Assembly: GCA_041619515.1 (NCBI GenBank) | Contig: JBFKDW010000002.1 | Coordinates: forward strand, 1-53,368 | DNA length: 53,368 nt | Direction of reading: 5' to 3' | From: Acidimicrobiia bacterium | GTDB lineage: Bacteria; Actinomycetota; Acidimicrobiia; Spongiisociales; SHLN01 | Shown here: piece after piece, positions 9,233 through 26,903 of the stretch | How positions within the stretch are numbered: the stretch's first letter is position 1 | How the letters are laid out: every line of letters starts with the position of its first letter | Notes under the pieces: model-generated | Told to the model about the DNA's origin: nothing | The model's input: only the letters and a program-made list of their open reading frames with translations | The model's database searches: none | Translations under genes and position numbers: made by a program

Positions 9233-9247
9233 TCTTCTCCCCTGTTC

Positions 9248-10135: not shown

Positions 10136-10941
10136 GCCGCCTGCTCCCAGGTGCGCCACCGAAAGAGGCGTCGTTCGATGATGGCCAGGACCCGCTCGAT
10201 GAACAGCATGAAGATGATGAAGAGGAGTGTCCAGGCCATCACCCGCGTGATGCTGAACGACTGGAAAGCGAATCTGATCTGAAAACCGACCCCGTTCGAG
10301 GATCCGAACACCTCGGTCAGCGCCTCGACCTTCCAGGCGATCGCAAACGACAACCGTACCCCGGCAAAGACGTAGGGAAGGATCGACGGAACCAGGATGT
10401 GCCGCATGGTCTGGCGGTCGCTCCTTCCGAAGGCGGCGCTCATCCGGATGAGATTCTGGTCGACCCCCTCCAGGCCTTCGGCCACGTTGAGGGCGATGTA
10501 GGGCATTGAGATGAGACCAACTGCCAGCACCGGTCCTTGGTAGCCGATTCCGAATATCACCAGCGCCATCACGGCGTAGGTGAGGCCGGGTATCGACCCT
10601 GCCCCCACCACGCCGTCGTGGAAGAAGGCCTTCCAGTAGCGGCTCCGGCCCATCAGATAGCCGATCGGCACCCCGATGAGGGCCGCGACCCCGAAACCCA
10701 AGAAGGTCTTGGAGATGCTGGAGCGGAAATCATCGACGAACTCACCCGCTTCGACGATGTCCCACATAGCCTGCCCCACCTTGACCGGACCCGGCAGTGT
10801 GAACTGGTTGAGGATGAACGAGGAGACAAAAGCCCAGATTCCGAAGAAGGCCGCCCAGCCGAGGGCGACGCCGGAGGCCCGCCGGAGCCGTGCTCCGGCG
10901 AACCTCCTGCTCGTACCCTCGAGTGCGGCGGCTTGAGCCAT
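10132..10941 (-). CDS. NitT/TauT-family ABC permease
   Basis: LPGP, PSILPYVFAGVRL, AWK..TEVFGSSNGVG. Confidence 0.92.
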   Translation of the reverse strand: MAQAAALEGTSRRFAGARLRRASGVALGWAAFFGIWAFVSSFILNQFTLPGPVKVGQAMWDIVEAGEFVDDFRSSISKTFLGFGVAALIGVPIGYLMGRSRYWKAFFHDGVVGAGSIPGLTYAVMALVIFGIGYQGPVLAVGLISMPYIALNVAEGLEGVDQNLIRMSAAFGRSDRQTMRHILVPSILPYVFAGVRLSFAIAWKVEALTEVFGSSNGVGFQIRFAFQSFSITRVMAWTLLFIIFMLFIERVLAIIERRLFRWRTWEQAA

Positions 10942-10967
10942 CTCGGTACTCGGTGCTCTTTAGCGTC

Positions 10968-12011
10968 CTACGGCGAGACGATCTCGAACCGGGGCGGGTC
11001 CTCGGTCTCGGACAGGCCCGCCTTCTCGAGCAGGGTGAACAGCTCCGACTCAGATTCCACCCACTCCTCGGTGAGGTAGATGCCCTTGGCAAACCAGTCG
11101 TGCTCGCTCAGGTAGTCCTGCATCCAGGCAATCTGCTCCTCGCCTTCGGCGGCGAAGTGCTGCGGATAGTCGGCGATGATCTGGTCCCGGTTGGCGGCCC
11201 ACTCCTTGAGACCCCGGTCCCACAGGGCCAGGAAGAAGTCGACCTCCTCAGGATGGGTGTCATACCAGTCCTCGCGGGCCAGGAAGATATTGATCATTGG
11301 ACCTTCGTGACCAGGCTTTCCGACCACCTCGGCGTACATGTCGGCCGAAGTCCTGCCGTCGTAGAGGATCTTCACCTCTTCGTTGAGCAGGATCGGGATG
11401 CTGAAGTCGGGCAGGACGATGGCACAATCGGTGTCGCCACTCGCCGCCTGGGCGGCCGTGTTCGTGATGTCCACGACGACGAGCTCGAAGTCACCCCCGC
11501 CCACCCGGAAATCGAGGCCGTGCAGCTCGTTGGCCAACACGCCCCAGATGGTCGTCGACGACAGCGTGTCCCAGACCGCCACCTTGCCACCGACACAATC
11601 GGCAAGCGTTGTGTACTCGGGGTGCTCGGGCGAGGCGACGATGATGCTCCGGTCGATGTTGTACTTGCCAAAGACCACGCTGGGAATGCCGAACTCCTGC
11701 TCGATCGTTGGCACCTCGAAGTCACCGACCGACATGATGTCGGCGTTTCCACCCGCGTAGACGCCGACCTCGTTCCAGGTTGCCGAATCGAGGATCGCGA
11801 CGTTGGCGGCGGTCTCCATCTCCTCCCGGATGCCGGAGTCGATCAGGTAGTCCCACACCGGGTCCGGTGCGAATGCAAACCGGATCACCTTGAGCGCGTC
11901 CGGGTCGGCCGTCGTGTCACTTCCGCCGGTATCGTCATCCCCACCACAGGCAGCCGCCACCATGGCAAATGCCAGCAGGACGGCGATCAATCTCAGGGCC
12001 TTCTTGGCCAT
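10968..12011 (-). CDS. ABC substrate-binding lipoprotein (NitT/TauT-type)
   Basis: Signal peptide with lipobox VAAACGG; first gene of the ABC operon; GAGGAGG RBS. Confidence 0.85.
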   Translation of the reverse strand: MAKKALRLIAVLLAFAMVAAACGGDDDTGGSDTTADPDALKVIRFAFAPDPVWDYLIDSGIREEMETAANVAILDSATWNEVGVYAGGNADIMSVGDFEVPTIEQEFGIPSVVFGKYNIDRSIIVASPEHPEYTTLADCVGGKVAVWDTLSSTTIWGVLANELHGLDFRVGGGDFELVVVDITNTAAQAASGDTDCAIVLPDFSIPILLNEEVKILYDGRTSADMYAEVVGKPGHEGPMINIFLAREDWYDTHPEEVDFFLALWDRGLKEWAANRDQIIADYPQHFAAEGEEQIAWMQDYLSEHDWFAKGIYLTEEWVESESELFTLLEKAGLSETEDPPRFEIVSP

Positions 12012-12051
12012 TCGTATTCCTCCTCGTTCTCCGGCGATCGCCTCGCCATTT

Positions 12052-12765
12052 CTACGTTCGCGTTTCCTGCAGGACCGCCGCGGTGCGGTCCCTTTCATAC
12101 AAGAGCTTCAAGATCACATTGCAGGCCGATTGGAGGTGCTCGATCACTTCTGCCTCGAGGTCGGGGCCGCTGCCCCGGGTGGCCGCATCGTAGATGCGCC
12201 GATGCTGTCGGTTGCTCTCCTCGGCCCCCAGCTCGGTTATGAGCATCCGGGTGTAGCGGCCGGTCTGCTGGCGAGCCCGTTCGACGATCTCCACCATGCG
12301 GGGACGGGGGGCGGGGCGATAGAGGCCGGCGTGAAACAGGTCGTTGGTCTCCACCCACCGGGCGAGATCATCCGTGTTCTCCATGGTCTGGAGGTGCTCC
12401 TCCATGTCGAAGTGGGACTTCCGCTTGAGGTTCGGAAGGGCGAGGCGGCAGAGAGACGGCTCGATCGCAATCCTCAGCTGATAGAGCTCCTGCAAATCGT
12501 CCAGGCCCAACGGAGCAACGACTGCGGTGGTATGGGCCTTCGTGACGACGAGCCGCTCCGCGGCAAGAACTGCGATGGCGTCGCGGACCGGGCTTCGGCT
12601 CACTCCAATTTGGGAGGCCACCTCGTTCTGGTTGATGGGAGCGCCGGGGGCGAAGTCACCGGAGATGATCCGGCGGCGTAGGTAGTCGGTTGCCATGTCG
12701 GCCGCCGTCCTGCCGTTGCCGGTTCGAGCTATCGCCACACCCACCCCGTCTCCGTTGTGGCGCAT
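12052..12765 (-). CDS. GntR (FadR/FCD) family transcriptional regulator
   Basis: LRRRIISG.F.PG..I....A...GVSRSPVRDA wHTH; FCD NDLFH and QHRRI; start uncertain (12738-12813). Confidence 0.92.
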   Translation of the reverse strand: MRHNGDGVGVAIARTGNGRTAADMATDYLRRRIISGDFAPGAPINQNEVASQIGVSRSPVRDAIAVLAAERLVVTKAHTTAVVAPLGLDDLQELYQLRIAIEPSLCRLALPNLKRKSHFDMEEHLQTMENTDDLARWVETNDLFHAGLYRPAPRPRMVEIVERARQQTGRYTRMLITELGAEESNRQHRRIYDAATRGSGPDLEAEVIEHLQSACNVILKLLYERDRTAAVLQETRT

Positions 12766-12858
12766 GTCTACCAGATACGTTTGTTGGATGTCAATCAGGC
12801 GGGTTGTATCCAAACGGTGGCGATGGGACTAGTCACTGCGTTCGCGGAACAGGGAGGG

Positions 12859-13884
12859 TTACGGCGTGGTCACATCGGGGTCGAGCCCGAGGAGCCGAAC
12901 AGCATTTCCACCGACAATGTTGTCCCGATCCTGGTCGGTGAGGCCTTCGACCCTTTCGATGAGGCCGATGGGATCCGTCTCCCCCATGTCGTACGGATAG
13001 TCGGTTCCGAGCAGCACGTGATCCGACCCGTACAGCCGGACCAGATGGCCGAGTGCGTCCTCACCAAACACCATCGTGTCGAAGTGCAGCTTCTTCAGGT
13101 ACTCGCTGGGACGCTGCGAGATGTTCTCTCGGCACTCCGGCCTCACCTCGAAGGCATGATCCATGCGATCGGCGTAGAACGGGAGGTAGCCCCCTCCATG
13201 GACGACGACGATCTTGAGATCGGGGTACTCCTCGAGAACGCCACCGAAGATGAGCTTCATGGTCCCGACCGTCGAATCGAGCGGGTTGCCGACCACGTTG
13301 ATCATGTAGTAATCGGTGAGTCGGGCGCCGTCGCTGTAGCCCTGCGGGTGGAGGATGATGGTGGCGTCGAGTTCCTGTGCCTTGGCCCAGAACTCTCGAT
13401 ACTCCGGACGGTCGTAGTCGATCCCGTTCACGCTGGTACTGATGGAGGCACCCGGAAAGCCGAGCTGGGTCACCGCCCGCTCGAGCTCGGCCGCCGCCCG
13501 TCCGGGATCCTGCATCGGAAGGGTGGCCATCCCGACGAACCGGCCGGGGGTGCCGGCGACCATCGACGCAATCGCGTCGTTTTGAATGCCCGACAACTCG
13601 GCACCGAGTGACGGCTCGGTCCAGTAGTAGTACTGGGGTGGGCCAATGGCGAGCGCATCGATCTGGATGCCCATACGATCCATGTCCGGGATGCGCACCT
13701 CGGGCCCAACCATCTTGGGACGAAGCGCAGGAAAGTGCTCGGCGTTGTACGCGGCGCTCTTCTCACCCGAATACTGGAAGAAGGCGTCGTCCTCCGGCCG
13801 CTGCATTCCCTCGACCATCTTGGCGGCCTCGGGGACGATGACATGATTGTGGATGTCGACGGTCGGCCGATCCTGGGATGGCAT
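12859..13884 (-). CDS. Amidohydrolase_2 family (ACMSD/LigW-like decarboxylase or hydratase)
   Basis: DIHNH, ILHP, HGGGYLPF, GTDYPYDM. Confidence 0.92.
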   Translation of the reverse strand: MPSQDRPTVDIHNHVIVPEAAKMVEGMQRPEDDAFFQYSGEKSAAYNAEHFPALRPKMVGPEVRIPDMDRMGIQIDALAIGPPQYYYWTEPSLGAELSGIQNDAIASMVAGTPGRFVGMATLPMQDPGRAAAELERAVTQLGFPGASISTSVNGIDYDRPEYREFWAKAQELDATIILHPQGYSDGARLTDYYMINVVGNPLDSTVGTMKLIFGGVLEEYPDLKIVVVHGGGYLPFYADRMDHAFEVRPECRENISQRPSEYLKKLHFDTMVFGEDALGHLVRLYGSDHVLLGTDYPYDMGETDPIGLIERVEGLTDQDRDNIVGGNAVRLLGLDPDVTTP

Positions 13885-13938
13885 GGGCGCAGTTCCTCCT
13901 CGATTGATGCCGGCACGATACTTCGGTGCGCGGGCAGG

Positions 13939-14628
13939 CTAGTCCTCGACGATCGCCACAGCCCGGGTCGGACCGCCGTGAGCACCGATGACCTTGAGCG
14001 GAAATCCGGCGAAGATGAATCGCTTGTTCACGACCTCATTGAGATTGAGGTTCTCGTAGTGAGTGATGTGCTCGCGACGGCACATCATGTGGACCGGATA
14101 GCTCGCAGAGGTTGGATTGTCGGGCGTGGGAGAATCGACTCCGAACGTCTTGACACCGCGGTCGACGATCCACTCGGCGCCGCTCGCTCCGAGCCCGGGG
14201 AACTCACTCAAGTACTCGTCTGTTCCTCCGTACCGATCGAAGGTTGCCGTGTAGAGGAACAGCATGTCTCCCCGATGAAGATCGAGGCCCGAGGCAGCCA
14301 GCGCCGCATCGAGGTGATCGGCGGTGATGTCGGTCTTGGCCGGCACCGCGGAGACGTCCAAGCAGATCGCCGAACCGTAGAACAGGTCAAGCGACATCTG
14401 GTCGATGGTCTGTGCCGAAGGATCGGGATCCAGGTGACTGAACGAGTCGACGTGGGTCGGCCCGTTGTCGTTGAGCATGAACCCGAGAGTCTGAAACGAG
14501 AAACCGCCCTCGAACCGGACCGCCGTTTCTTTGTGGGTGGCGTGTTGAAAGACCACCGTCTTGAGGTGGCCGGGATAGACCATCATGCCCTCGTAGATGT
14601 CCTGAGAAAGATCGATGAGTCGTGTCAT
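13939..14628 (-). CDS. Cyclase family protein (kynurenine formamidase-like)
   Basis: IDLSQ, NGPTHVD, GVDSP, ENL, PLK..GGPTRAVA. Confidence 0.9.
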   Translation of the reverse strand: MTRLIDLSQDIYEGMMVYPGHLKTVVFQHATHKETAVRFEGGFSFQTLGFMLNDNGPTHVDSFSHLDPDPSAQTIDQMSLDLFYGSAICLDVSAVPAKTDITADHLDAALAASGLDLHRGDMLFLYTATFDRYGGTDEYLSEFPGLGASGAEWIVDRGVKTFGVDSPTPDNPTSASYPVHMMCRREHITHYENLNLNEVVNKRFIFAGFPLKVIGAHGGPTRAVAIVED

Positions 14629-14637
14629 TGCTGCCTC

Positions 14638-15414
14638 CTAGTACATGACGACGCCGGAATTCACGTTCACATCTGCTCCGGTCAAGGCTTCTGCCTGCTC
14701 CGAGGCGAGGAATACAGCCGTCCCGGCCACGTCCTCAGGTCGGGTGAGGCGGTGGAGTGCCGCTTCGGCCTCGAATTCGCGCCGAACCACAGCGGCGTCG
14801 ACTCCCCGACCGTCGGCCTGGGATTTGATGACCCAGTCGAGCCGCGGGCCCGCCACGAAGCCGGGCGAGATGAGGTTGACCCGTACCCCGTACGGCCCTG
14901 CTTCGATGGCAAGTGTCCGGGTGAGACCGATCAGCGCCGCCTTGGTGGCTGCGTAGGGGGTTCGCCCCCACAACGGCCGCTTCCCGGTGATGGACCCGAT
15001 CACGACCACGGAGCCGGATCGGCGGGCAATCATCGCCGGCAGGATCGCTTTGGACACGAGAAAGACCCCTTCGACGTTGACGGCGAACGTCGCTCGCCAC
15101 TCCGCGAGCTCGACCTCCCACAGTGGCCCCGAGGGCCCGCCGATCCCGCTGTTGTTGACGAGCACGTCGATCCGGCCGAAGCGGTCGAGCGCCCGGTCGG
15201 CCATTTCCGCCACCGCCGCCGGATCGGTCACGTCGGTGGGGACGACGAGCGTTTCGACACCGAGCTCGGCCGCCCCGTTGGCGGTCTCCCGGAGGTTGGC
15301 AGCGTTCCTGGCGACGAGCACGAGCGCGTCGCCGGCGGCGGCAAAAGCCAGTGCGAGCTCTCTCCCGATGCCCTGGCTGGCCCCGGTGATGAGCGTGACC
15401 CGGGAGTCGGTCAT
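14638..15414 (-). CDS. Short-chain dehydrogenase/reductase
   Basis: TGASQGIG, NNSG, YAATK, VNLISPG; ATGA overlap with the upstream gene. Confidence 0.93.
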   Translation of the reverse strand: MTDSRVTLITGASQGIGRELALAFAAAGDALVLVARNAANLRETANGAAELGVETLVVPTDVTDPAAVAEMADRALDRFGRIDVLVNNSGIGGPSGPLWEVELAEWRATFAVNVEGVFLVSKAILPAMIARRSGSVVVIGSITGKRPLWGRTPYAATKAALIGLTRTLAIEAGPYGVRVNLISPGFVAGPRLDWVIKSQADGRGVDAAVVRREFEAEAALHRLTRPEDVAGTAVFLASEQAEALTGADVNVNSGVVMY

Positions 15415-16712
15415 GCATCCCCCTGCGCCTCGAGGGCGTCGCCGAAGTACTCGGGGTTGAGCCGCAAACGTGCACTGATGGCATGGCCGAACATGAGCTC
15501 GGCGTCGGCGACGACCGCCGCCGGCTCGGCCACGGTGGCCGAGCCCCGGGCGGTGACCCGCTGGGTGGTCACGGTCTTGAGGAACTTCCCTACCCACAGG
15601 CCGCCGGTGTATCGAGCAGCCCGCCCGGTAGGAAGCACGTGGTTGGTCCCGATCGCCTTGTCCGAGTAGGTGACGGTGGCGTGGGGGCCGACGAAGAGGG
15701 TGCCGTAGTTCCGCAGGCGTTCGGCGAACCATCCCGGATCGGCCGTCTGCACTTCCAGGTGCTCGGGGGCTATCCCGTCTGAGACGGCGACGAGCTCCTC
15801 GTCGTCCCGGCACAGAATGATGGCCCCGTAGTCCCGCCACGCCACGCCGGCAATGGAGGCCGTCGGCCACGTCTCGAGCCAGCGATCCACCTCGACGGCG
15901 ACCCGGCGGGCGAGATCCTCCGAAGTCGTGGCGAGAATCGCCGGTGATGTCGGACCGTGCTCGGCCTGGCCGAGCAAGTCGGCGGCCACCACGGACGGAT
16001 CGGCGCCGTCGTCGGCGATCACCATGACCTCGGTCGGTCCCGCCAGCAGGTCGATGCCGACGGTGCCGAAGAGCTGTCGTTTTGCCTCGGCAACGTAGAC
16101 GTTGCCGGCCCCGACGACCATATCGACCGGATCGGAATCCTCGAGCCCAAAGGCGAGGCCGGCCAGGGCTTGAACACCGCCGACACAGAAGATCTCATCG
16201 GCGCCCGCCTCGGCCATCGCCCACAGCTGGGGCGGATGCATGCCGTTCTCATCGCGGGGGGGCGCGGCCGAGGCGACCCGCGGGACCCCGGCGATCTTGG
16301 GAGTAGCGATCGTCATGAAGGCCGAGGCGATGAGCGGGTACAGCCCACCGGGCGAATACGCCCCGACCGATTGCACGGGAATGTGCTTCTGGCCGAGTAC
16401 CACGCCGGGAAGAGTCTCGACCTCGAAGTCCACCAGGCTGTCTCGCTGCAGCCGGGCGAAGTTACGGATCTGCTCCAGCGCGAACCGAGCGTGGATAAGG
16501 ACCTCGTCCTCGACCTGGTCCGTAGCGCGCCGGATGGCGTCTTCCGACACACGGAACGTCGGTGGGCTCCAATTGTCGAAGCGCTCCGAATATCGGCGAA
16601 CCGCCGCGGTGCCGTCCCGCGCCACGTCGGCAATGATCGTGCTGACGGTCGAGCGGATCTCTTCGGTCACCTCCTGCGGTTGTCGCGTGGGCTCCTTGAG
16701 ATAATCGGCCAT
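15411..16712 (-). CDS. Histidinol dehydrogenase paralogue (HpsN/sulfopropanediol dehydrogenase-like)
   Basis: PGG.YPL, GGVQA, AEAKR, AGPTE, QAEHG, APEHL, GTNHVLPT; catabolic context with no his genes. Confidence 0.88.
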   Translation of the reverse strand: MADYLKEPTRQPQEVTEEIRSTVSTIIADVARDGTAAVRRYSERFDNWSPPTFRVSEDAIRRATDQVEDEVLIHARFALEQIRNFARLQRDSLVDFEVETLPGVVLGQKHIPVQSVGAYSPGGLYPLIASAFMTIATPKIAGVPRVASAAPPRDENGMHPPQLWAMAEAGADEIFCVGGVQALAGLAFGLEDSDPVDMVVGAGNVYVAEAKRQLFGTVGIDLLAGPTEVMVIADDGADPSVVAADLLGQAEHGPTSPAILATTSEDLARRVAVEVDRWLETWPTASIAGVAWRDYGAIILCRDDEELVAVSDGIAPEHLEVQTADPGWFAERLRNYGTLFVGPHATVTYSDKAIGTNHVLPTGRAARYTGGLWVGKFLKTVTTQRVTARGSATVAEPAAVVADAELMFGHAISARLRLNPEYFGDALEAQGDA

Positions 16713-16713
16713 G

Positions 16714-17706
16714 TCAGCGGATACCCGATACGGACTCGGCCCGTCCGGATTCGCTCGACGCCACTGCGGCTTCGAGGACCTCGATCACCGCCAGCCCTTG
16801 CGGCCCACCGGTCTCCGGCCGGGCGATTCCCTGGATGGATTTGACGAACTCTGCCAGCTCGTCGGCGACGGTGTCGATGGTCTCGATCGGTTCCTCCACC
16901 AGGGTGGAATCGCCGGTTGCCTGGGTGAAGAAGCGGGCACCGTTTTCCTCGTTCACGGCCATGCCGGCGGTCCCCCGCACCGTCACCGTCGCCGTCCTGG
17001 GCACCACGAACGAGGTGCCGAGGTAGCCGAGGGGACCAGACGAGAACTCGAGAACGATCGAGGTGGCGTGGTCGATGGGCGGTCCATCGAGGATCCCCTT
17101 GCTGAACGCAAAGACCCGCTGCACGGGACCGAGCAGATACATCATGGTGTCGAGCATGTGCACGCCGAGGCTGGTCATCCCCCCGAGCGGGCTCTCCGTC
17201 CGGCTCGCCCGCCAGTAGCCGTCTTCGAAGCGGAGCGCATTGGGCACCGACTGGTTGGTCTCGATCATCGTCACCGTTCCCAGCTCACCGGAGTCGATGA
17301 GAGCCTTCAGCCGACGATTGGCGGGCTGTCGCCGCTGGTTGTGCCCTACCTGCAGGACAACACCGGCTTCGTCGGCAGCCTGCACGGCCCGGCGGGCGTC
17401 GCCGGCCGTGAGGGCAAGCGGCTTCTCGACGAAGACGTGTTTGCCGGCCGCCGCGGCCGACACGATCTGATCGGCGTGAGTGGAGTGGGGCGTCGCCAGC
17501 ATCACCCCGTCGACGTCGTCGGCCTCGAGAATGGCTTCGTAGCTATCGAACCCGCGACCCCCGAACTCATCGGTAAAGGCGGCCCGGTTGGCGGGGGTGC
17601 GCGCATAGCCGCCGGCGATCTCGCCTCCGCCTGCCAACGCCGCGCCTGCGAGCACCCGGCCCCACCAGCCCAGGCCGGCTGAGGCAAGCCGAACGTTGCC
17701 GCTCAT
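16714..17706 (-). CDS. Gfo/Idh/MocA family oxidoreductase
   Basis: GLGWWG, ATPHSTH, KHVFVEKP, GHNQR, GVHMLD. Confidence 0.92.
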   Translation of the reverse strand: MSGNVRLASAGLGWWGRVLAGAALAGGGEIAGGYARTPANRAAFTDEFGGRGFDSYEAILEADDVDGVMLATPHSTHADQIVSAAAAGKHVFVEKPLALTAGDARRAVQAADEAGVVLQVGHNQRRQPANRRLKALIDSGELGTVTMIETNQSVPNALRFEDGYWRASRTESPLGGMTSLGVHMLDTMMYLLGPVQRVFAFSKGILDGPPIDHATSIVLEFSSGPLGYLGTSFVVPRTATVTVRGTAGMAVNEENGARFFTQATGDSTLVEEPIETIDTVADELAEFVKSIQGIARPETGGPQGLAVIEVLEAAVASSESGRAESVSGIR

Positions 17707-17790
17707 GGAATCCCTTTCCTCCGGGACTTGCTGTTGATCGGAGAAATGTATGATACGCCCGCCCGTTTTCCCCCGCCCCGGAGGCATCTC

Positions 17791-18474
17791 GTGGCAAAAC
17801 CCGACGGCTACTTCAAGCGGCCACCGGGCCCGCTCGCCGGGTTCTGGTCGTGGAGATACCTCAACTGGGTGAAGAGCATCAGGCTCGTCACGTCGAAGCG
17901 GGTGCGCAGGGCGTACGAGGCTTTTCCCACCACGGTCCCGATCGGCGTCGAGTTTCCGGAGATAGAGCTCACGACGACCTCCGGCCGCGTCGTCAACACA
18001 CGGGAGTTTCAGGGGAAACGTCACTTCGTGCTCTTCACCGGCGCCATCACCTGACCGCCGTTTCGGCGGCAGTTGTCGCCCATGCATGAGCTGCGGGAGA
18101 AGTATGCCCACCGTGAGGTCGAGTTCCTGGCGATGTACGTGCGCGAGCCCCATGCCGGCGAGCGGGGGTTTCCCGACCACGAGGACCACCGCAGCTTCGA
18201 ACACAAGATGGAGGTCGCTCGCGAGCTCCAACAACTGAAGGACATGACCATTCCGCTGGGGGTCGACGACATGAGCCAGGAGCAGCACGCCCGCCTCGGC
18301 AACCTGCCCAACATGGTGTTCGTCGTTGATCGGCTGGGCCGGCTCGCCTACAGCAACACCTGGTTGCTGGCCGACGATGTCGACTCCGTTCTTGCTCGGC
18401 TCGTCACCGCCGATGATCCCGCTCGACCGATCGAGCCCACGGTCACGACCCGGCACCTCGGTCCCGGCATCTGA
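17791..18474 (+). CDS. Iodothyronine-deiodinase-like selenoprotein (227 aa; Sec88 = TGA 18052-18054)
   Basis: ORFs 17728-18054 and 18073-18474 are in frame. The joined protein reads FTGAIT-U-PPF...YVREPH...VDDM...GNLPNMVFVV, matching deiodinase motifs FGSxTUPPF / YIxEAH / VDxM / YGxxP. GGAGG RBS before GTG 17791; hairpin 3' of the UGA. Confidence 0.88.
18055..18080 (+). promoter_or_regulatory. Candidate bacterial SECIS element
   Basis: UGA-ccgccguuuc-GGCGGC-AGUU-GUCGCC: 6-bp stem with one G-U pair, loop at +17..+20; same geometry as the element at 26675-26700. Confidence 0.78.
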
Positions 18475-18502
18475 AGGCGGCGGCGTCCGCCCGGAGTCGA
18501 GT

Positions 18503-19168
18503 TCAGTCCAGGATTGCGAAGAACCGGGCGGGGGCGCCTTCTCCGCCGGTGATCTTCAGAAACGCCGCAAAGAACAGGAATCGCGAGCCGGCGGGCAGGG
18601 AACCGAAATTGGTCATCGACTGCATGAGGACTGCACCGGAATCGCCGATGATGTGGTGCACGACAAATTCGCTCGCCAGGTAGTGCTCCTTCTTCGCCGA
18701 GCGTTCGGGAAAGCAGTCGAAACCGATCGCCTTGGCGCCGGTCTCTGCCAGCCAGCGGGCGGCCGCCGGCGAACAGGAAGGCGAGTCGATGTAGTAGCGG
18801 GGGAACTCTCCCCATGCCTCATCCGACCACCCGGTGCGCACGAGCACGACGTCACCGTGACGGATCTCTGGAGCCGCCCGCTCGAGGTCGGCGACACCGA
18901 TGTCGTGGTCGGCCGCCACCGGCGTGAGATCGATGAGCACGGCCTCACCACTCGTCCGGTCGAGCGAGACGCTCTCGGCAGTTTCGCCCTCCTCGCGATA
19001 ATGGCCGGTGAAGTCGACGTGCGAACCGGCGTGCAGCGCCATCGTGATCTCGCTCACCATCCAGAAGCCGGGTTCTTTGAAGCGCCGGGAAATGCCGATG
19101 GGTTGATTCACCGACGGAGGGCTGTAGGTGTCCGAACCGATCGGCACGGTCAGATCGACGATTCGCAC
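18503..19168 (-). CDS. Cyclase family protein
   Basis: IVDLT, HAGSHVD, RTGW, GFD, GEGAPARFFA. Confidence 0.88.
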   Translation of the reverse strand: MRIVDLTVPIGSDTYSPPSVNQPIGISRRFKEPGFWMVSEITMALHAGSHVDFTGHYREEGETAESVSLDRTSGEAVLIDLTPVAADHDIGVADLERAAPEIRHGDVVLVRTGWSDEAWGEFPRYYIDSPSCSPAAARWLAETGAKAIGFDCFPERSAKKEHYLASEFVVHHIIGDSGAVLMQSMTNFGSLPAGSRFLFFAAFLKITGGEGAPARFFAILD

Positions 19169-19184
19169 GTCCCTCCTCGGCTCG

Positions 19185-20204
19185 TCAGGCGAAACTCACG
19201 ACCGACCGACCGATGATCGAGCCCTCCCGCAGCCCGTCGAGACCATCGTTCACGGCATCCAGCTCGAACTCGGCCCCGATGATCGGCCGGATGAGGCCGC
19301 GCTCCACCAGTCCAACGGCCTCCAGCAGGTCACCCCTGGTGGATCCCCGTGAGCCCATGATCGCCACCTCGTCGTAGACGAGCCGCATCATCCCCACCGT
19401 CAGCTGCGGTACGAGATACCCGACGACGACAACCCGGCCACCCTTCCGACAGGCCAACACCCCCTGTTCCACCGAGCCCTCGATGCCCACGATGTCGATG
19501 AAGGCGTGCACCCCCAGCCCCTTCGTCAGCTCACGGATCTGGCCGGGGAGGTCGCCGTCGTCCGGATCGATCGACCAAGTGGCTCCCAGCTCCTCGGCCA
19601 GGCTGCGCCGCTCCTTGGTCCGGGCGATGGCGATCACCCTCGCCCCGGCCAGCGCCGCAACCTGCACGGCGATGAGCCCGAGCCCGCCCAGCCCGTACAC
19701 CGCCACGGTCTGGCCGGCCGTGACCCCGGCCCGTTTGAGGACGGCGTGGTAGGGCGAACCGACGGCGTCGGGAATCGTGGCCGCCTCGGCGAACGTGATG
19801 GCGGGCGGGATCTCGATGAGGTTGGCGGCGGGCACGCGTACGTACTCGGCGAGGGCGCCGTCTTGCTCGAGGCCGAGACGGAGCAATCGAGCACAGTAGT
19901 CGAGCTCACCCTTCCGGCAGTACTCACAGGTACCGCACGAGATGTCGAGGCCGACGGCCACTCTCGCTCCCTCGCGGAATCCACTCCCCTCCCCCCCGAG
20001 GGCGACCACCTCACCGGCCAGTTCGTGTCCCAGGATGCGGGGCGTCGTGACCGTCGGAATGGCTCCTTCGATGATCTTGAGATCGGTGCGACAGATTCCG
20101 GCGGCGCCGGTCCGGACGATGACATCGTCGATGGCGGGCTCCGGGTCGGGTACCTCCTGCACCGTCAGGGGCCGGTTGAACTCCTCCAACACCGCTGCTC
20201 GCAT
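19185..20204 (-). CDS. Zinc-dependent alcohol dehydrogenase
   Basis: GICRTD, GHE, CGTCEYC..G...C, GLGGLG. Confidence 0.93.
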   Translation of the reverse strand: MRAAVLEEFNRPLTVQEVPDPEPAIDDVIVRTGAAGICRTDLKIIEGAIPTVTTPRILGHELAGEVVALGGEGSGFREGARVAVGLDISCGTCEYCRKGELDYCARLLRLGLEQDGALAEYVRVPAANLIEIPPAITFAEAATIPDAVGSPYHAVLKRAGVTAGQTVAVYGLGGLGLIAVQVAALAGARVIAIARTKERRSLAEELGATWSIDPDDGDLPGQIRELTKGLGVHAFIDIVGIEGSVEQGVLACRKGGRVVVVGYLVPQLTVGMMRLVYDEVAIMGSRGSTRGDLLEAVGLVERGLIRPIIGAEFELDAVNDGLDGLREGSIIGRSVVSFA

Positions 20205-20349
20205 GGCATCTCCCGTAGCCGCATTCCGAGACTACGGTCGGGACGGCCGCCTCGTCAACAGACCCCGATGATCTGCGCCATGGGCCAGGTTCCGGCCCGC
20301 TCTCGGTTACCGCCTTTGCCGGGCGAGCTCGCTCGGGTCGACGAGCCGC

Positions 20350-21285
20350 CTACGCGTAGGCTTCGACGAGCCACTCGTGCAACCAGGCGGCTGCCTCCCT
20401 GGCGGCGATCTCCAGGTGAGACATGTCGCTGTACATGCTCATGTGCGTGCTCGATTGCTGGACGAACAGCCGCTTCTTGGTGGTCACGATCTCGTTGAAC
20501 GCGGGGATCTCTCGTTCCCACATGGTGAGGTCGTCACCTTCGGCAACGATCATCAAAGTGGGGGTGTCGAGAATCATCGGCAGGTACGGCCGCATGTTGT
20601 ACGCCCACACCCATTCGACCGACTGGATGGTGCTGTAGTGCTCGTGGCGCGGTGCGGTCGTTTCCTTGATCTTCATGAAGATCGGCTTGGTTTCCGGGTG
20701 CGGCCAGGTCACCACCTCGGTCTTGGGGTCACCCGAGTGGGGAATGAAGCCGTGTTCCCCGGTGAGATACCGGTTCTTCCGGTCCGATTCCACGAGTGCC
20801 GTCAGCTCGCGGAATCCGACAGAACCGTGGGCTCGCATCGAGTTGTACCAACCCTCGATCACCGGAATCTGGGACACAACGCACTTGACGCGAGAATCGA
20901 GCGCTCCGACCGCCAGCACGTGACCTCCGCTGTAGGAGATGCCCCACACCGCTATCCGTTCCGGGTCCAGATCTGGCTTGAACTCGTCCAGGTAGGAAAC
21001 GGCGTCGACCGCGCTCCGATAATCGGAGATCTGCATCCACGGGTCGATGTGCTGTCGGGGCTCTCCATCGCTGGCCCCGAAGTTCCGGTAGTCGAAGATC
21101 AGCGCGGCCACACCTACCTCGAGGAAGAACCGGGCGTACTCGGGCATGATGAGCTCTTTCACGTAGCACCACCCGCCGCCCATGATCACCACCGGCCAGG
21201 GGCCTTGGCCCGTGTCCGGCGTGTACAGGTCGGCCCGGAGCATCTGGCCCGGCGTCTCACTTTGGAACTCGACTTCTCGGTGCAT
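20350..21285 (-). CDS. Alpha/beta hydrolase (YcjY/acetyl-xylan-esterase-like)
   Basis: FDYRNFGASDGEPRQ, WGISYSGG, C-terminal Asp and His. Confidence 0.9.
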   Translation of the reverse strand: MHREVEFQSETPGQMLRADLYTPDTGQGPWPVVIMGGGWCYVKELIMPEYARFFLEVGVAALIFDYRNFGASDGEPRQHIDPWMQISDYRSAVDAVSYLDEFKPDLDPERIAVWGISYSGGHVLAVGALDSRVKCVVSQIPVIEGWYNSMRAHGSVGFRELTALVESDRKNRYLTGEHGFIPHSGDPKTEVVTWPHPETKPIFMKIKETTAPRHEHYSTIQSVEWVWAYNMRPYLPMILDTPTLMIVAEGDDLTMWEREIPAFNEIVTTKKRLFVQQSSTHMSMYSDMSHLEIAAREAAAWLHEWLVEAYA

Positions 21286-21466
21286 GGCAGACCTCCTTCA
21301 GACGCCGTGCTCGACCTATCCGGCAAGGATCACCGCGCGCAGGCTAGGCACCGCCGTTTGGGGGCGTCAATGGTGAGGGCGGCTGCCTCGGGACCGGCGC
21401 TCGCCCCGCGACTACTCTCGCACCGGCACCACCGACCTCTGGAAAGCACGCTGACAAGGAGATCCC

Positions 21467-22939
21467 ATGGAACGCTTCCGTCATCGCATCGGTTCGGAGG
21501 ACGTCTCCCCCGCCCTCGGCGAGTATCTCCCGACACTGAATCCGGTCACCGCCCGGCCGTGGGCCGAGATCGGGCGCGGCACCGCCGCGGATGTCGAGCG
21601 CGCTGTGGATGCGGCGTCGACGGCCTTCGCCACCTGGCGGAGCACCTCACCGTCGGAGCGAGCGGCCCTGTTGTGGCGGCTCGGGGAGGTCATCTCCGAG
21701 CACGCCGAGGAACTGGCTCAGCTCGAGTCGCGCGACATCGGCAAGGTCATCCGCGAGATGCGGGGTCAAATGGTGGGGCTGCCCAAGTGGTACCGCTACT
21801 TCGCGAGCCAATGCCACAACCTCGAGGGGTCGGTGATCCCGCTCGATCGGGCATCGATTCTCAACTACACCCGCCGCGAACCGTTCGGTGTCGTCGGCAT
21901 CATTCCGTCGTTCAACAGTCCGGTGCTCCTGACGAGCTTCGCGCTGGCACCGGCGCTGGCCACCGGCAATGCCGCCGTCATCAAGCCATCCGAGCACGCC
22001 TCGACGGCCGTGCTGTTGTTCGCCCGCCTGTTCGACGAGGCAGGCTTCCCCCCCGGTCTTGTGAACGTCGTTACGGGCCTGGGCCCGGAGGCCGGCGATG
22101 CTCTGGTCGGCCATCCCGAGGTTCGCAAGATCGCCTTCACCGGCGGAGTGGAGACCGCCCGGCTGGTGGGAGCCAGGGCGGCGGAAGCCGTCAAGCCGGC
22201 CATCCTGGAGCTGGGCGGCAAATCGGCCAACATCGTGTTCCCCGACGCCGACGTCACTTCGGCGGTCAACGGAATCATCGCCGGCATCTTCGCCGCCGCC
22301 GGCCAGACCTGCCTCGCCGGCTCCCGACTGCTGGCCCACGCCGAGATTGCCGACGAGATCGTCGAACGCATCTCCGACCGGGCCGCGACCATCGTGATGG
22401 GCGACCCGCTGCTGGACGAGACCGAAATGGGACCGGTCGCTCAACCGGGGATTCGCGACCGGGTGAACACCAGGGTCCGGGAGGCCATCGGTGTCGGTGC
22501 CGTAGCCGCCGCCGGAGGAGATTTGGACGCGGTCGGGGACCGGGCCGGATGGTTCTACCCGCCGACCGTGCTCGACAACGTCACCAACGACATGGCCATT
22601 GCGCGCCATGAGCTGTTCGGACCGGTGCTCAGCGTCATCCGCTTCTCCAGCGAGGAGGAAGCGCTCAGCATCGCCAACGACTCGCCCTTCGGGCTGGCGG
22701 CCGGTGTCTGGACCCGTGACCTGAGCCGGGCCCACCGGATGGCCGCCGATCTCGAAGCCGGAACGGTGTGGGTCAATACCTACAGAAGCCTCTCCTACTC
22801 ATCGCCGTTCGGTGGACGCAAGCTGAGCGGGTACGGACGGGAGCTGGGACGGGAAGGTCTCCTCGAGTTCACCCAGACGAAGAGCGTGTGGGTGGAGACG
22901 TCCGAAGAGCCCATGGGCGACCCGTTCGTCCTGCGGTGA
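21467..22939 (+). CDS. Aldehyde dehydrogenase
   Basis: KPSEH, FTGG, LELGGKS, GQTCLAGSR, ELFGPV, VWVNTYR. Confidence 0.95.
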   Translation: MERFRHRIGSEDVSPALGEYLPTLNPVTARPWAEIGRGTAADVERAVDAASTAFATWRSTSPSERAALLWRLGEVISEHAEELAQLESRDIGKVIREMRGQMVGLPKWYRYFASQCHNLEGSVIPLDRASILNYTRREPFGVVGIIPSFNSPVLLTSFALAPALATGNAAVIKPSEHASTAVLLFARLFDEAGFPPGLVNVVTGLGPEAGDALVGHPEVRKIAFTGGVETARLVGARAAEAVKPAILELGGKSANIVFPDADVTSAVNGIIAGIFAAAGQTCLAGSRLLAHAEIADEIVERISDRAATIVMGDPLLDETEMGPVAQPGIRDRVNTRVREAIGVGAVAAAGGDLDAVGDRAGWFYPPTVLDNVTNDMAIARHELFGPVLSVIRFSSEEEALSIANDSPFGLAAGVWTRDLSRAHRMAADLEAGTVWVNTYRSLSYSSPFGGRKLSGYGRELGREGLLEFTQTKSVWVETSEEPMGDPFVLR

Positions 22940-22947
22940 GTCGCGCG

Positions 22948-24291
22948 CTACCGGCCGACGGCTCCGGGCCCCGCCAGAAAGCGGCCGGCGCGTTCGTCGA
23001 CCGGTACACCCTCCTGGGCGACCAGCCGGCCCCGCAGGTACGTGGCCACAGCGCCGCCGACCAGGGTGCGCCCGGCGTACGGCGTCCATCCAGCTTTCGA
23101 GACGACATCCTCGTCCGCCACCGTCCACTCATGGTCCTGGTCGATGAGAACCAGGTCTGCATCGGCGCCCGGGACGATGTGTCCCTTGTGTTGGAGGCCG
23201 TATCGACGGGCAGGCTCTTCGGCGTAGCGGCGGACGACATCCTCATAGGACAGCCGGCCCTGGTGGGTCGCATCGAGGAGAAACGGAAGCGTCGTATCCA
23301 GACCCGGTAATCCGAACGGTGCCTCCCACATGCCGGCGTCTTTCTGGGCACGGGTAGAGGGAGCGTGGTCGGTGGAGACATGGGTCAGGACACCGGCTCG
23401 GAGAAGGCTCCACATGCTGTCCACGTGGGCATCGGTGCGGGCCCGAGCGGGAGGTGTGAATTTGCGGAGCGGGCCTTCCGTGTGCACCTCGTCCTCGCGG
23501 AACGCGAAATACTGAGGGCAGGCTTCGGCTGCCAAATCGGCACCGAGAGAGCGTGCCCACTCGATGATGCCGGCTGCCTCCGGCGTGCTGACATGGGCGA
23601 TCGTCGCCCGGGTGCCGTGGCGGGCCGCCAGAACCCCGGCTACCGCCACCGCCACCTCCTCGGCAGTGCGATTTCTCCATTCAATGAGCAGGCCGTTGTC
23701 GCTTCGGCCCTGTTCTTTGAGCACCTTCTCGGCGCGAGCGGTGATGGCCTCATCTTCACAGTGGATGAGGGCCGCTCCCGCAAAGCCGGCGATGTCGGCC
23801 ATGGCGGCATCGAGTTGAGCAGCGTCGAGCCCGGGTACACCGTGGGTCGTACAGGTGAAGATCTTGAAGAACGTGACCCCCGCCTCCCATAGCTCGCCGA
23901 GGCGGCCGATCCGGTCCGGCCAGGTATGGGCCGCCAGGCCGTAATCGACGTTGGAACGGCCCTCGAGATATCCCCGCTTGTCCGTGAGCTCGGAGACGGT
24001 CCGGATCGGATGGCCGTGGGTGTGCTCGACGATGGTCGTGACCCCGCGTGCGGCCGCCGCCCGGCTTCCGGCAGGGAAGTCCTCCCGCGCCGGGTCGCCC
24101 GGGTCCATCAGATGCACATGGGTATCGACCATGCCGGGCAACACGAGCAGACCGCTGGCATCGATGACGGTAGCCGCCGGCACATCCTCGAGGCCGACGT
24201 GCTCGATCCTCCCGTCTTCGATATAGACGTGGGCCCGCCGCCGCCGGCCGGCGGCGACCACCGTGCCACCCTTGACGGCCAGCTCGCTCAT
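22948..24291 (-). CDS. Cyclic amidohydrolase (allantoinase/dihydroorotase family)
   Basis: PGMVDTHVH, FFKIF, IHCE, AHVS, STDHAP, GADADLVL. Confidence 0.92.
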   Translation of the reverse strand: MSELAVKGGTVVAAGRRRRAHVYIEDGRIEHVGLEDVPAATVIDASGLLVLPGMVDTHVHLMDPGDPAREDFPAGSRAAAARGVTTIVEHTHGHPIRTVSELTDKRGYLEGRSNVDYGLAAHTWPDRIGRLGELWEAGVTFFKIFTCTTHGVPGLDAAQLDAAMADIAGFAGAALIHCEDEAITARAEKVLKEQGRSDNGLLIEWRNRTAEEVAVAVAGVLAARHGTRATIAHVSTPEAAGIIEWARSLGADLAAEACPQYFAFREDEVHTEGPLRKFTPPARARTDAHVDSMWSLLRAGVLTHVSTDHAPSTRAQKDAGMWEAPFGLPGLDTTLPFLLDATHQGRLSYEDVVRRYAEEPARRYGLQHKGHIVPGADADLVLIDQDHEWTVADEDVVSKAGWTPYAGRTLVGGAVATYLRGRLVAQEGVPVDERAGRFLAGPGAVGR

Positions 24292-24301
24292 TCCCGGGCC
24301 G

Positions 24302-25519
24302 TCACAGCATCAGCTTCTCTTCGTACTCGGTCCGCGACAGCACCCGCGCATCGCCCTCGGTCACCAGGCACATGTCTTCGATCCGGACCCCACCGCCGCC
24401 GGGCACATCCGGCACCCACACGAGGGGTTCGATGGCAAACAGCATGTTCGGCTCGAGCTCGTACGTCGTAGCACCGGGCAGGGTCTCACCGATGTAAGGA
24501 GGTTCGTTGGCCCCCATGCCAATTCCGTGCCCGATGAAGAGGCTGAACAAGTGGTCTTCGTAGCCGTATGAGCCGATCTTCTCGGTAATCGCCTCGGCCA
24601 CGTCTCGGTTCGAGTTGCCGGGCCGCAGCTGGTCGATTCCCGCCATGAGGCCTTCGTAGACGGCGGTGTAGATCTCGCGTTGGCGCCGGCTCGCCTTGCC
24701 GACGATGGTGGTCCGCCCGATGTCGGCGAAATAGCCGTTCCACATGGCACCAATGTCGATGAAACACAGATCGCCGTTGCGCATGATCTTGTCCGTGCAT
24801 ATCCGGTGAGGGGGAGACATGTGCTCCCCCGAGGCAACGAAGGGTGTTATGACGTGGGCCATCTCCCCGCCGAGGTAATAGAGCGTCTGCATGGCATCGC
24901 CCGCCACCTCTTGCTCGCGGCGGCCGGCTTTCGTTTCGTCCAGAGCCCGCTGGGTGACGGCGTCACCGATGGCACAGGCCTCCTCGACGATGGCGATTTC
25001 TTCGTCGAGTTTGATCCAGCGTGCTTGCTGCATGATCGCGTCGCCGTCGAGGATTTCCAGGTTCGGGAGGTGCCGGCTGATGGATTCGATGAGAGAGAGG
25101 CCCGCCACATCCATCCCGATGCGGCCATCGGCTATCCCGCGATCTCGCAGCAGTGGGAGGAGGGTCTCGCGCACGAACCCGTCGACCAGCTCGCGTTGTT
25201 CCATGACGGGAATCGGATGCACTCCGGCCAGCCACGGCATGCCGAACGTGGCCTTGTCCAGCTCACCACCCGAACAGAGCAAAACGGGATCCTCCCCCCC
25301 AGCCAGCAAGACGCCGTTCAGCGACGAGCTCTTCCCGGCAATGATCTGGGCTCGGAGCGAGGTGAGGTAGCGAACGTTCTCGTTCTTCCACAGCAAGAGC
25401 CCATCGAGCTGGGAATCAGCCAGCTCCGCCTTGACCTTGCCGATTCGCTTGGTTCGGAGGGCGGTGAAGTCGAAGCGCTCCTCCCAGTCGGCTGCCGCCT
25501 GGCCGCGGCCGTAGCTCAT
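24302..25519 (-). CDS. M24 family metalloenzyme (Xaa-Pro peptidase/creatinase fold)
   Basis: FIDIG, YFADIGRT, GHGIG, IEP, RIED: full D-D-H-E-E ligand set. Confidence 0.9.
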   Translation of the reverse strand: MSYGRGQAAADWEERFDFTALRTKRIGKVKAELADSQLDGLLLWKNENVRYLTSLRAQIIAGKSSSLNGVLLAGGEDPVLLCSGGELDKATFGMPWLAGVHPIPVMEQRELVDGFVRETLLPLLRDRGIADGRIGMDVAGLSLIESISRHLPNLEILDGDAIMQQARWIKLDEEIAIVEEACAIGDAVTQRALDETKAGRREQEVAGDAMQTLYYLGGEMAHVITPFVASGEHMSPPHRICTDKIMRNGDLCFIDIGAMWNGYFADIGRTTIVGKASRRQREIYTAVYEGLMAGIDQLRPGNSNRDVAEAITEKIGSYGYEDHLFSLFIGHGIGMGANEPPYIGETLPGATTYELEPNMLFAIEPLVWVPDVPGGGGVRIEDMCLVTEGDARVLSRTEYEEKLML

Positions 25520-25679
25520 CGCAGAAAAGCCCGGTGGAACCGGCGGGCGTCCCCGCTCGGCGACGGCGAGATCACGATCGGCACGTGCGACTCCCTCATC
25601 GGGTGACCGGAACCGATGCTATCCCATCAGGTTGGGCCCCTCGCCATCCACTTTGCTCGCCGTTCCGTATTCTCTTTGT

Positions 25680-26339
25680 ATGGCTCAGCCCTCTCCTCCC
25701 ATCCAGACGATCGGGCCCCGCGACGACGAGCCCGACGATTCCGCCCCGGAGCGCTCCGGGGCGCTTGGGCTCCTCCTCATCTCGATAGTGCTGTTGCTGT
25801 CGGTGGTTGCCCTGGGATCCGGGTCGGGCGGGATGGAGACCGAATCGGTTGATGAAGAGCGGCGGCTGGATTCCTCACTCCTCCACGATCTCGGCGGACC
25901 GGTCGACGCCGTCGAACAGTTCATGACGGCTCTCAGCTACGGTCAAACTGAGGTGGTGGCCGCAGCGGTCGCAGCCGATGCCGATGTCATCGAGCTCCCG
26001 CTCCTGTCGGCGCCGGCGGAGCAGATTGCAAGCACGATGGCGACATTTCAGGACATCGGCGGCGTCATTCAGATGTTCGGCTGCTCGGCCGACTCGCCGG
26101 CGGTTGATTCGGCAGCGGTGGGAGTCACCTGCTCGGTGGCATACACCAGCGACTTCATTCGACACCTCGATTCCCCTTACCTGCGTGGAACCATGGACTT
26201 CCTGGTTGTCGATGGGCTCGTCGGGCGCGTCCGGGTGGAAATGGAATCACCCCTCGCCGATAAGCGGGCCTTCGACCGGTGGCTGATCGACTTCTACGCC
26301 GAGCGTCTCGCCGCCGTTCGCGACCAGCGCGAGAGCTGA
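25680..26339 (+). CDS. Hypothetical membrane-anchored protein (possible NTF2-like domain)
   Basis: Single N-terminal hydrophobic helix; fills the gap between flanking genes; no recognisable family. Confidence 0.6.
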   Translation: MAQPSPPIQTIGPRDDEPDDSAPERSGALGLLLISIVLLLSVVALGSGSGGMETESVDEERRLDSSLLHDLGGPVDAVEQFMTALSYGQTEVVAAAVAADADVIELPLLSAPAEQIASTMATFQDIGGVIQMFGCSADSPAVDSAAVGVTCSVAYTSDFIRHLDSPYLRGTMDFLVVDGLVGRVRVEMESPLADKRAFDRWLIDFYAERLAAVRDQRES

Positions 26340-26349
26340 GGCGGACCGC

Positions 26350-26883
26350 TCAGGCAGACGCCTTCCCCTCCCCCAGGGAGCGCACCACTGCCAAGGCTTC
26401 TTGCAGATCGGGCTCGATGAGAGCGTCCTCGGACACCCATCGGTACCGAACCACCCCGTCGTGGCCTATCACGAACACCGACCGCTTGGCCACGCCCGAG
26501 TGACCCTTCCAGGCCTCGTATTGGACTCCGTAGGAAGCGGCAACCGTGCCTTCCCAATCGGAAAGCATGGGGAATTGCGCACCGAGTGAGGCGGCAAAAG
26601 CCATTTGAGAGAATGTGGCCGTCACCGCAATGGCGATCGGCTCGGCACCGAAACCTCGGATCTCGTCGACGAGTTGTCCCAACTGGGACAGTTCGTGACT
26701 TCACACGTGACCGAAGTCGAACACGTAGAAGAGCAGCAGGACGGGTCCGCCGGCGGTGAGGTCGTAAAGGCCGATGTCTTCCTCGAACGTCCGGCGCAGC
26801 CGGAAGGCGGGAGCCCCGTCCCCGACGCCGATATGGCCGGACGGAGGCCCGGCATGTGTGGGGCCATGTGGCGAAGGACTCAT
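26350..26883 (-). CDS. Peroxiredoxin-like (AhpC/TSA, AhpE/BCP-type) selenoprotein (177 aa; Sec61 = TGA 26703-26701)
   Basis: ORFs 26701-26883 and 26350-26682 are in frame. The joined protein reads VGDGAPAFRL...LLFYVFDFGHV-U-SHE...FPMLSDW...AKRSVFVIGHDGVVRY, with the UGA at the peroxidatic Cys position. Hairpin 3' of the UGA. Confidence 0.88.
26675..26700 (-). promoter_or_regulatory. Candidate bacterial SECIS element
   Basis: UGA-agucacgaac-UGUCCC-AGUU-GGGACA, with a possible lower stem gucacga/ucgu(c)gac; loop at +17..+20. Confidence 0.8.
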
Positions 26884-26903
26884 GCCGCGACGCTAGTCCT
26901 CTC

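Follow-up and report, generated by a model that had tools for sequence, protein, structure and literature searches.

The deiodinase-like gene described here lies in the window, by which we mean the whole 53,368-nucleotide stretch of DNA that was analysed. Its in-frame UGA would almost certainly be read as selenocysteine (Sec) by SelB and tRNA-Sec through a hairpin 16 nt downstream, giving one protein of 227 aa. Translation of the plus-strand frame 17791-18474 gave 227 codons with TGA 18052-18054 as the sole internal stop, and 3' of the TGA the same frame holds the motifs YVREPH, VDDM and GNLPN. An earlier note on this DNA had read two annotated ORFs as one frame broken by this TGA alone and had described the joined product as a 227-aa protein without Cys; translation bore out both statements. 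The elements of the gene are as follows.

17791..18474, plus strand: deiodinase-like selenoprotein gene, 227 aa, no Cys, predicted active site A-I-T-U-P-P-F
17780..17784, plus strand: probable ribosome-binding site GGAGG, 6 nt ahead of the GTG start at 17791
17821..17931, plus strand: clade-specific N-terminal segment PPGP..WSW..Y, residues 11-47, three predicted helices
18052..18054, plus strand: TGA, the Sec88 codon (codon 88), in the context FTGAIT*PPF
18065..18080, plus strand: putative bacterial SECIS, with a stem of 6 bp and an AGUU loop that begins 16 nt beyond the UGA
18136..18240, plus strand: deiodinase-type insertion, residues 116-150, with YVREPH, loop D, His133 and helix D

The GTG at 17791 lines up with ATG in relatives, most of which have a GAGG- or GGAG-like stretch upstream. 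A plain ORF caller split the frame into 17728-18054 and 18073-18474. Of 112 matches in the public protein collection, none spans the TGA (coverage 38-59%); 109 of them are downstream fragments of 127-136 aa, the window's own included, and all 112 records retrieved are fragments that start or stop at the Sec codon. The splitting of the gene in two that the earlier note expected of standard pipelines is thus what the databases hold, and annotation or pathway tools fed on such records would miss it. The read-through protein matches PF00837 (E 5e-14, 52.6 bits against a cut-off of 27) over residues 21-187, spanning the TGA, and the TGA is unchanged in assembled contigs from three of four sequencing runs, two of the three possibly being the source of this DNA and one a separate study, so that chance or an assembly error can be dismissed; a TGC or TGT, which the note had considered, appears in none of these three.

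The host genome (66% GC, 3.1 Mb) carries the Sec machinery on which the reading depends. We detected selA (419 bits), selB (319) and selD (396), all above cut-off, with selA and selB adjacent, and a tRNA-Sec (RF01852, 72.4 bits) with anticodon TCA (UCA); the host selD itself has an in-frame TGA. We rejected an alternative code in which UGA means Trp or Gly, since these same genes end in TGA, TAG and TAA interchangeably and the UCA tRNA is tRNA-Sec. All eight genomes in which the TGA was seen have selA, a co-occurrence that gives weak support to recoding because selA is present anyway in 274 of 401 class genomes (a count that takes in one unpublished genome, G275). Sec use is the rule in the class, and within it 52 of the 65 genomes of a family with ~1-Mb genomes have selA. 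For Acidimicrobiia it has been reported in Actinomarina (bioRxiv 10.64898/2026.04.03.716425), where the main text, as far as available, does not mention deiodinases.

The homologue set comprised 6 genome-contig loci, 55 metagenome loci and the 401-genome class sample. Sixty-four tblastn rows over column 88 (the window's own two included) reduced to 55 distinct contexts, of which 52 have TGA and 3, all distant, a Cys codon; at 39% identity or more TGA is found in 43 of 43, and many distant full-length proteins have Cys at this column. As the earlier note anticipated, homologues carry either TGA or Cys at position 88 with conservation on both sides, and the TGA, shared by every close relative and seen in further assemblies, is not private to the strain. 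In a quick tree of 89 rows, built without animal sequences and with deep branches poorly placed, the window falls in a 34-row clade (SH-aLRT 95), all of it TGA. The terminal stop 139 codons after the TGA is TGA in 19, TAG in 12 and TAA in 5 (36 of 51 close rows). The internal TGA is fixed whereas the terminal stop varies freely, indicating that the internal codon is not an ordinary stop. Over 91 pairs among 14 close sequences, uncorrected pN/pS came to 0.205/0.601 before the TGA (codons 12-87) and 0.161/0.636 after it (codons 99-218). By these values the halves on both sides of the TGA are under purifying selection, and the decay of the downstream half that the note had raised is not seen. Two relatives depart from this pattern: L014:5001-5681 has an extra TAG and His121Arg, in a genome that retains selA, and L056:6001-6679 is broken into three frames. 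Both appear to be decaying, sequencing error also being possible.

The nucleotides after the TGA are conserved beyond what the protein needs to encode. Among 42 distinct sequences Gln94 is CAG in 42/42 and Leu95 is TTG in 39/39, TTG being used elsewhere in 8/38 at Leu81 and 3/35 at Leu101; Arg92 is CGG in 38/41 and Arg93 in 37/42, compared with 5/39, 9/40 and 14/34 at three other Arg. This freezing of synonymous codons from R92 to L95 points to a SECIS constraint on the hairpin codons, and pS is only 0.176 over codons 92-97. Contigs of other homologues match the window DNA almost solely over the TGA and hairpin (18025-18084), and a match so confined is a direct sign of constraint at the nucleotide level. 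The loop is AGUU, with AGGU in 3/40, and the hairpin agrees with the bSECIS consensus, including the G-then-G/U alternation, in the accessible part of a review (PMC13188914). Of 240 stem cells 97.9% are paired, two pairs being compensated; shifting the register by -3 gives almost the same figure (96.7%), and covariation at the stem is thin (2 pairs), weak support if taken alone. The folding energy is ordinary (z -0.04 to -0.30), and an alternative hairpin is lower in energy in three of four folds. Rfam at the gathering threshold matched no SECIS model at the locus, and no sigma-70 promoter or terminator match was obtained.

The best PDB sequence match of the read-through protein was mouse Dio3 (4TR3, E 2.9e-9), with U88 aligned to Dio3 Sec170. 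An AlphaFold model from the 89-row alignment, in which Sec88 was modelled as Cys, reached pLDDT 92.6 and pTM 0.91; it consists of three N-terminal helices, a Prx-like hairpin, a thioredoxin core and the deiodinase insertion, and residue 88 sits where helix 89-104 begins. A wide structural search returned Dio3 (4TR4) on top, with Z 17.6, rmsd 2.7 and 164 residues aligned, and DsbE/ResA at 16.5-16.3. Foldseek listed ResA-type chains first by E-value and Dio3 ninth, yet with the top query TM-score among the matches listed.

Dio3 numbering of window residues was taken from the sequence alignment, counted from Sec170. Thr87, Tyr116, Glu119 and His121, aligned to Dio3 Thr169, Tyr197, Glu200 and His202, are kept in 34/34 clade rows, and His133 (Dio3 His219) in 31/34 as well as in 95 of 109 fragments. 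By alignment, five of the six residues of the Dio3 proton network as given in the available parts of PMC12025243 and PMC11592359 are kept; the sixth, Ser167, is replaced by Ala85, so that the Ala that the earlier note saw at the Ser of SxxU recurs in 33/34 clade rows. Dio3 Cys168 and Cys239 correspond to Ile86 and Ile154, and both resolving Cys are therefore absent. Dio3 Phe258-Glu259-Arg260 is Pro173-Asn174-Met175 here, and Arg275 is probably replaced by Trp191, judging from an ungapped extension of the alignment. Pro173, present in 34/34 clade rows, stands ahead of strand 176-179, at the position that in the part of PMC2757866 available is cis-Pro in thioredoxins and Arg in peroxiredoxins. 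The proposal that Sec88 is the only redox residue agrees with the lack of Cys in the window protein. No Cys besides column 88 occurs in 32/34 clade rows (several rows extend only over the match); among 109 downstream fragments, 9 contain one. Column 91 is F, Y, S or T in the 34 rows and never Cys; the broken locus L056, outside the alignment, has Cys.

The N-terminus is also characteristic of the clade. As the note described, it is basic and Trp-rich with no transmembrane helix: residues 1-50 include 10 K/R, 2 D/E and 3 W, and nowhere in the protein does the Kyte-Doolittle mean over 19 residues exceed 0.75. P11, G13, P14, W19, S20, Y42 and F45 are found in 33/34 clade rows, the 34th being without the region. 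Helices 14-22, 26-34 and 36-47 are predicted at pLDDT ~74-88, and this segment could form a lid or a dimer surface.

The gene is embedded in a group of catabolic genes, which also contains a second candidate selenoprotein gene; the earlier note mentions neither of these, nor the SECIS.

7563..28913, boundaries approximate: catabolic cluster around the gene
26350..26883, minus strand: companion Prx/AhpC-fold selenoprotein gene (predicted), ~177 aa, start uncertain, TGA at 26703-26701
26675..26690, minus strand: putative companion SECIS, a different 6-bp stem with the same AGUU loop and the same 16-nt spacing

The cluster encodes a NitT/TauT-type ABC transporter (its solute-binding protein at 10968-12098), GntR, amidohydrolase 2, two cyclase-family hydrolases, an SDR, an HpsN-like (HisD-family) dehydrogenase, Gfo/Idh/MocA, a Zn-ADH, an alpha/beta hydrolase, an ALDH, a hydantoinase-like amidohydrolase, an M24 hydrolase and a CocE/NonD hydrolase. 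Gfo/Idh/MocA (16714-17706, minus strand) is the divergent neighbour of the deiodinase-like gene, which points away from the run of Gfo/Idh/MocA, HpsN-like, SDR, cyclase, amidohydrolase, GntR and ABC-transporter genes and faces a run of cyclase, Zn-ADH and hydrolase genes, beyond which lie the ALDH, hydantoinase-like, M24 and CocE genes. This make-up, of which we found no described counterpart in the literature covered, suggests that the cluster breaks down a small N- or S-containing ring compound. The HisD-family dehydrogenase (15411-16712, minus strand) scored 385 bits with HpsN against at most 262 with HisD; with 13939-15414 and 16714-17706 it lies in a conserved module of HpsN-like, SDR and cyclase genes found in at least a dozen class genomes. 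Another HisD-family gene, more distantly related, is on contig C74 of the host genome. Catabolism of the sulfonate DHPS was rejected as the role of the cluster: only the HpsN-like score fits, and nothing else tested links the cluster to DHPS. A molybdenum hydroxylase large subunit (30297-32591, minus strand) and a PRK07236-type FAD monooxygenase (3026-4207, plus strand) flank the cluster; similar genes of both kinds adjoin the deiodinase-like gene in locus L032, and the monooxygenase alone does so in L056.

A 60-93% orthologue of a window cluster gene stands beside the homologue in 15 of 25 loci (of at least 2.5 kb), in reshuffled order; after duplicates were merged, 12 of 21 loci have a close cluster orthologue and 9 do not. 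In the 401-genome class sample we found the deiodinase-like clade in 4 genomes and the HpsN-like orthologue (at least 68%) in 15, so the deiodinase-like gene looks accessory to the cluster. The HpsN-like gene is present in three of the four clade genomes, and the fourth has a partial copy at a contig end.

The companion gene, ~8 kb from the deiodinase-like gene within the same cluster, has the motif FDFGHV-U-SHEL, no Cys and no PxxxTxxU signature; read through, it matches PF00578 (E 6e-25), and no NCBIfam model accepts the protein. In all 18 matching genomes its column has the one TGA, and AGTT follows at 16 nt in 18/18 with an unbroken stem of at least 4 bp in 13/18; Cys is absent from 16 of the 18 matched stretches. 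This gene, too, would be missed by tools that rely on fragment records. Of the 15 HpsN-like genomes 12 carry it, as do all 4 genomes of the deiodinase-like clade; these genomes are related and not independent. Its distribution agrees better with that of the HpsN-like cluster than does the distribution of the deiodinase-like gene. Among the 74,156 TGA triplets of the genome only the two window genes show the arrangement of an AGUU loop at 16 nt, a scan whose pattern was fixed after both genes were known and which shows rarity rather than providing an independent test. Other in-frame TGA codons with SECIS-like hairpins are found in G000 at C2:74417(+), C4:57847(+), C22:35937(+), C27:27423(-), C61:5873(+) and C8:28233(-), belonging in this order to an OsmC-like protein, FdhA, a W-U-P-L-C protein, a Prx/SelU-like U-x-x-C protein, a Trx-like U-x-x-C protein and SelD. 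The host genome would thus hold about eight selenoprotein candidates, with all labels except SelD taken from motifs; the genome-wide TGA screen was crude and itself missed selD and the companion gene.

We tentatively propose, with a probability of roughly 0.45, that the protein works as a single-selenol reductase in an accessory role, taking a halide or thiol group off a small substrate. It would act as an 'unblocking' reductase for the catabolic cluster: the Sec88 selenolate would attack a soft electrophilic substituent of a small imported ring substrate, either a halogen (iodine or activated bromine) or else sulfur, as in a thioether or S-conjugate, and the leaving carbon would be protonated by the Thr87/Tyr116/Glu119/His121/His133 network, as proposed for Dio3. 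Because the protein has no second Cys, resolution of the resulting Se-X or Se-S intermediate, and with it recycling, would depend on a thiol from outside, either thioredoxin or one of low molecular weight, and the product would pass on to the dehydrogenase and hydrolase steps of the cluster. TrxB is present in the host genome, the mycothiol genes score below cut-off (MshA-like 433 of 462.5 bits, MshC-like 295 of 485) and our search of this genome returned no glutathione synthetase GshB. In favour of the proposal, Dio3 is the best match in both sequence and structure, five of the six network residues are kept, and a gene rarer across the class than the HpsN-like gene fits an accessory step. Against it, no cluster gene points to halogens; Ser167, Phe258 and probably Arg275 are replaced, and Pro173 occupies a cis-Pro site typical of disulfide reductases; in structure Dio3 is only slightly ahead (Z 17.6, with a DsbE/TlpA protein reaching 16.5); and 9 of 21 distinct loci are without a close cluster orthologue.

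A narrower form of the same reading, counted within its probability, is true dehalogenation. The protein would then be a Cys-free aryl dehalogenase, a soluble counterpart of the deiodinases, which together with the companion would serve an undescribed pathway for consuming an iodinated or brominated natural product in marine and sediment Acidimicrobiia. We regard this as unlikely. The thyronine-binding and Sec-resolving residues of the animal enzymes are lost, which makes a dehalogenase one of several readings; selenium mimics failed to remove Cl or Br according to the portion of PMC12025243 available.

A less probable account than the single-selenol reductase, and one that we find doubtful, is a monothiol thioredoxin- or glutaredoxin-like disulfide reductase, in which Sec88 reduces mixed disulfides of proteins or small thiols, for example keeping cluster enzymes reduced, and the deiodinase insertion serves only partner specificity. 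Sec88 aligns to the first Cys of the ResA CxxC at the start of helix 89-104, the invariant Pro173 occupies what the accessible part of PMC2757866 describes as the substrate-binding cis-Pro position, more distant relatives have U-P-Y-C, and ResA/TlpA folds nearly match Dio3 in structural score. However, the CxxC partner is missing (position 91 is Phe), His133 and the Tyr/Glu/His network persist although disulfide exchange would not need them, and the invariant N-terminal Pro, Trp and Tyr suggest a defined pocket.

More improbable still is a one-Sec peroxidase that clears H2O2 or organic peroxides formed by nearby flavin and molybdenum oxidases. The AhpC-TSA and Redoxin domains score above their Pfam cut-offs, the model has a Prx-like N-terminal module, and the FAD monooxygenase and molybdenum hydroxylase lie within the window; yet the PxxxTxxU motif, as listed in the part of PMC13188914 available, is absent with Ala at -3, the Arg that peroxiredoxins carry at the cis-Pro position (PMC2757866, in part) is absent as well, and the companion Prx-fold selenoprotein is a better candidate for this role. 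That the TGA is a real stop, so that the gene is either a pseudogene or split with Met98 as the start of its second half, is scarcely credible: Met98 is found in 34 of 42 sequences, every public protein record found is a fragment and L014 and L056 look decayed, but some relatives have a non-start codon at position 98 and no ribosome-binding site precedes it, at identities of 39% and above the internal codon is never anything but TGA, in contrast to the variable terminal stop, both halves are under purifying selection with the SECIS codons frozen, and termination at the TGA would, in the model, split the fold right at the catalytic residue, with strand 1 on one side and helix 1 on the other.

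The clade is a handy test case for the family, since its members are small and soluble, have a single redox residue and are linked to a cluster that combines a transporter with catabolic genes, and the cluster can serve as a route to the substrate of a deiodinase-like protein. Were dehalogenation true, it would supply a first function for the bacterial deiodinase-like family, indicate the ancestral chemistry of animal deiodinases and shed light on the origin of thyroid-hormone deiodination, and it would add a selenium route to marine halogen cycling; were the protein a disulfide reductase, the family name would seem to mislead.

By profile and Sec position the predicted protein belongs to the prokaryotic deiodinase-like family, from which bacterial Sec and Cys members were reported in 2005 by Zhang, Fomenko and Gladyshev (PMC1088965, available in part) and again in the GOS survey (PMC2398784, whose survey table gives no motif in the part available). 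The reviews PMC9312934 and PMC13188914 give UxxC as the family motif in the sections available, and the latter, of 2026, calls the function of the prokaryotic proteins 'largely uncharacterised'. In the literature covered, mostly openly accessible, we found no account of the window clade or of an assay of a bacterial deiodinase; figures and supplements of the surveys may contain members, and the clade is set apart here from the motif listings of the reviews, as far as these are available, rather than from the 2005/2008 survey sequences themselves. No NCBIfam model accepts the window protein; it scores 64.4 bits with NF038285 (deiodinase_rel), where 250 are needed. One of our profile searches spanned the C-terminal 130 positions only.

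Two other groups of relatives were compared with the window clade. A 14-row clade (SH-aLRT 100; P0150, P0151, P0154, P0165, P0168, P0173, P0181, P0183, P0193, P0215, P0245, P0260, P0133 and P0235) separate from it consists mostly of membrane-anchored A-M-T-C-P-P-A-R proteins, five of which were looked up and are unnamed in the database. They share with the window Ala at -3 (13/14), the E-x-H-x-G-E-x-G-aromatic loop, P-N and Trp191, and differ in having Cys in 12/14, a hydrophobic N-terminal helix in 13/14 (KD19 at least 1.8) and no His133; they are probably the nearest Cys counterpart of the window clade. Two have Ser or Asn at the catalytic Cys. The loci L063:5611-6996 and L067:661-2106 encode Sec deiodinase-like domains with S-F-T-U-P-P-F, fused, judged by eye, to EF-hand-like repeats and a C-terminal CxxC thioredoxin-like domain. 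This last domain looks like a built-in reductant, which the window clade does not have.

Compared with TlpA/ResA/DsbE proteins, the window protein shares the core fold (Z 16.3-16.5), a nucleophile at the first CxxC position and Pro at the cis-Pro site, but has U-P-P-F in place of their CxxC dithiol, no second Cys or anchor, and a deiodinase insertion; PRK03147 gives 28 bits against a cut-off of 170. The peroxiredoxin signature PxxxT/SxxC(U) is absent from VLFTGAITU, which has Ala at -3 and no Pro at -7. With animal Dio1-3 (PDB 4TR3/4TR4, 9H48) it has in common the fold, with Prx-like module and Dio insertion, and T-U-P-P-F; in contrast to them it has no membrane anchor and no equivalents of Cys168 and Cys239, its SECIS is bacterial and in-frame, and the thyronine-binding Phe258 and Glu259 of Dio3 are replaced by Pro173 and Asn174. 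On these comparisons it is not a member of the iodothyronine deiodinases and represents a distinct Cys-free, cluster-linked variant. Like the prokaryotic PF00837 family, it scores above cut-off, has the Sec position and a bacterial SECIS, and has Cys homologues; the family motif, in the part of the literature available, is UxxC, whereas the window clade has U-P-P-F, is near Cys-free with Ala at -3, and is further set apart by its PPGP..WSW N-terminus and catabolic-cluster setting. Forms with U-P-Y-C fall in a clade separate from the U-P-P-F clade of the window, and the UxxC mismatch marks a variant, not exclusion from the family. The prokaryotic deiodinase-like selenoproteins have been known as a class since 2005; what differs here is a soluble, near Cys-free clade linked to a catabolic cluster.
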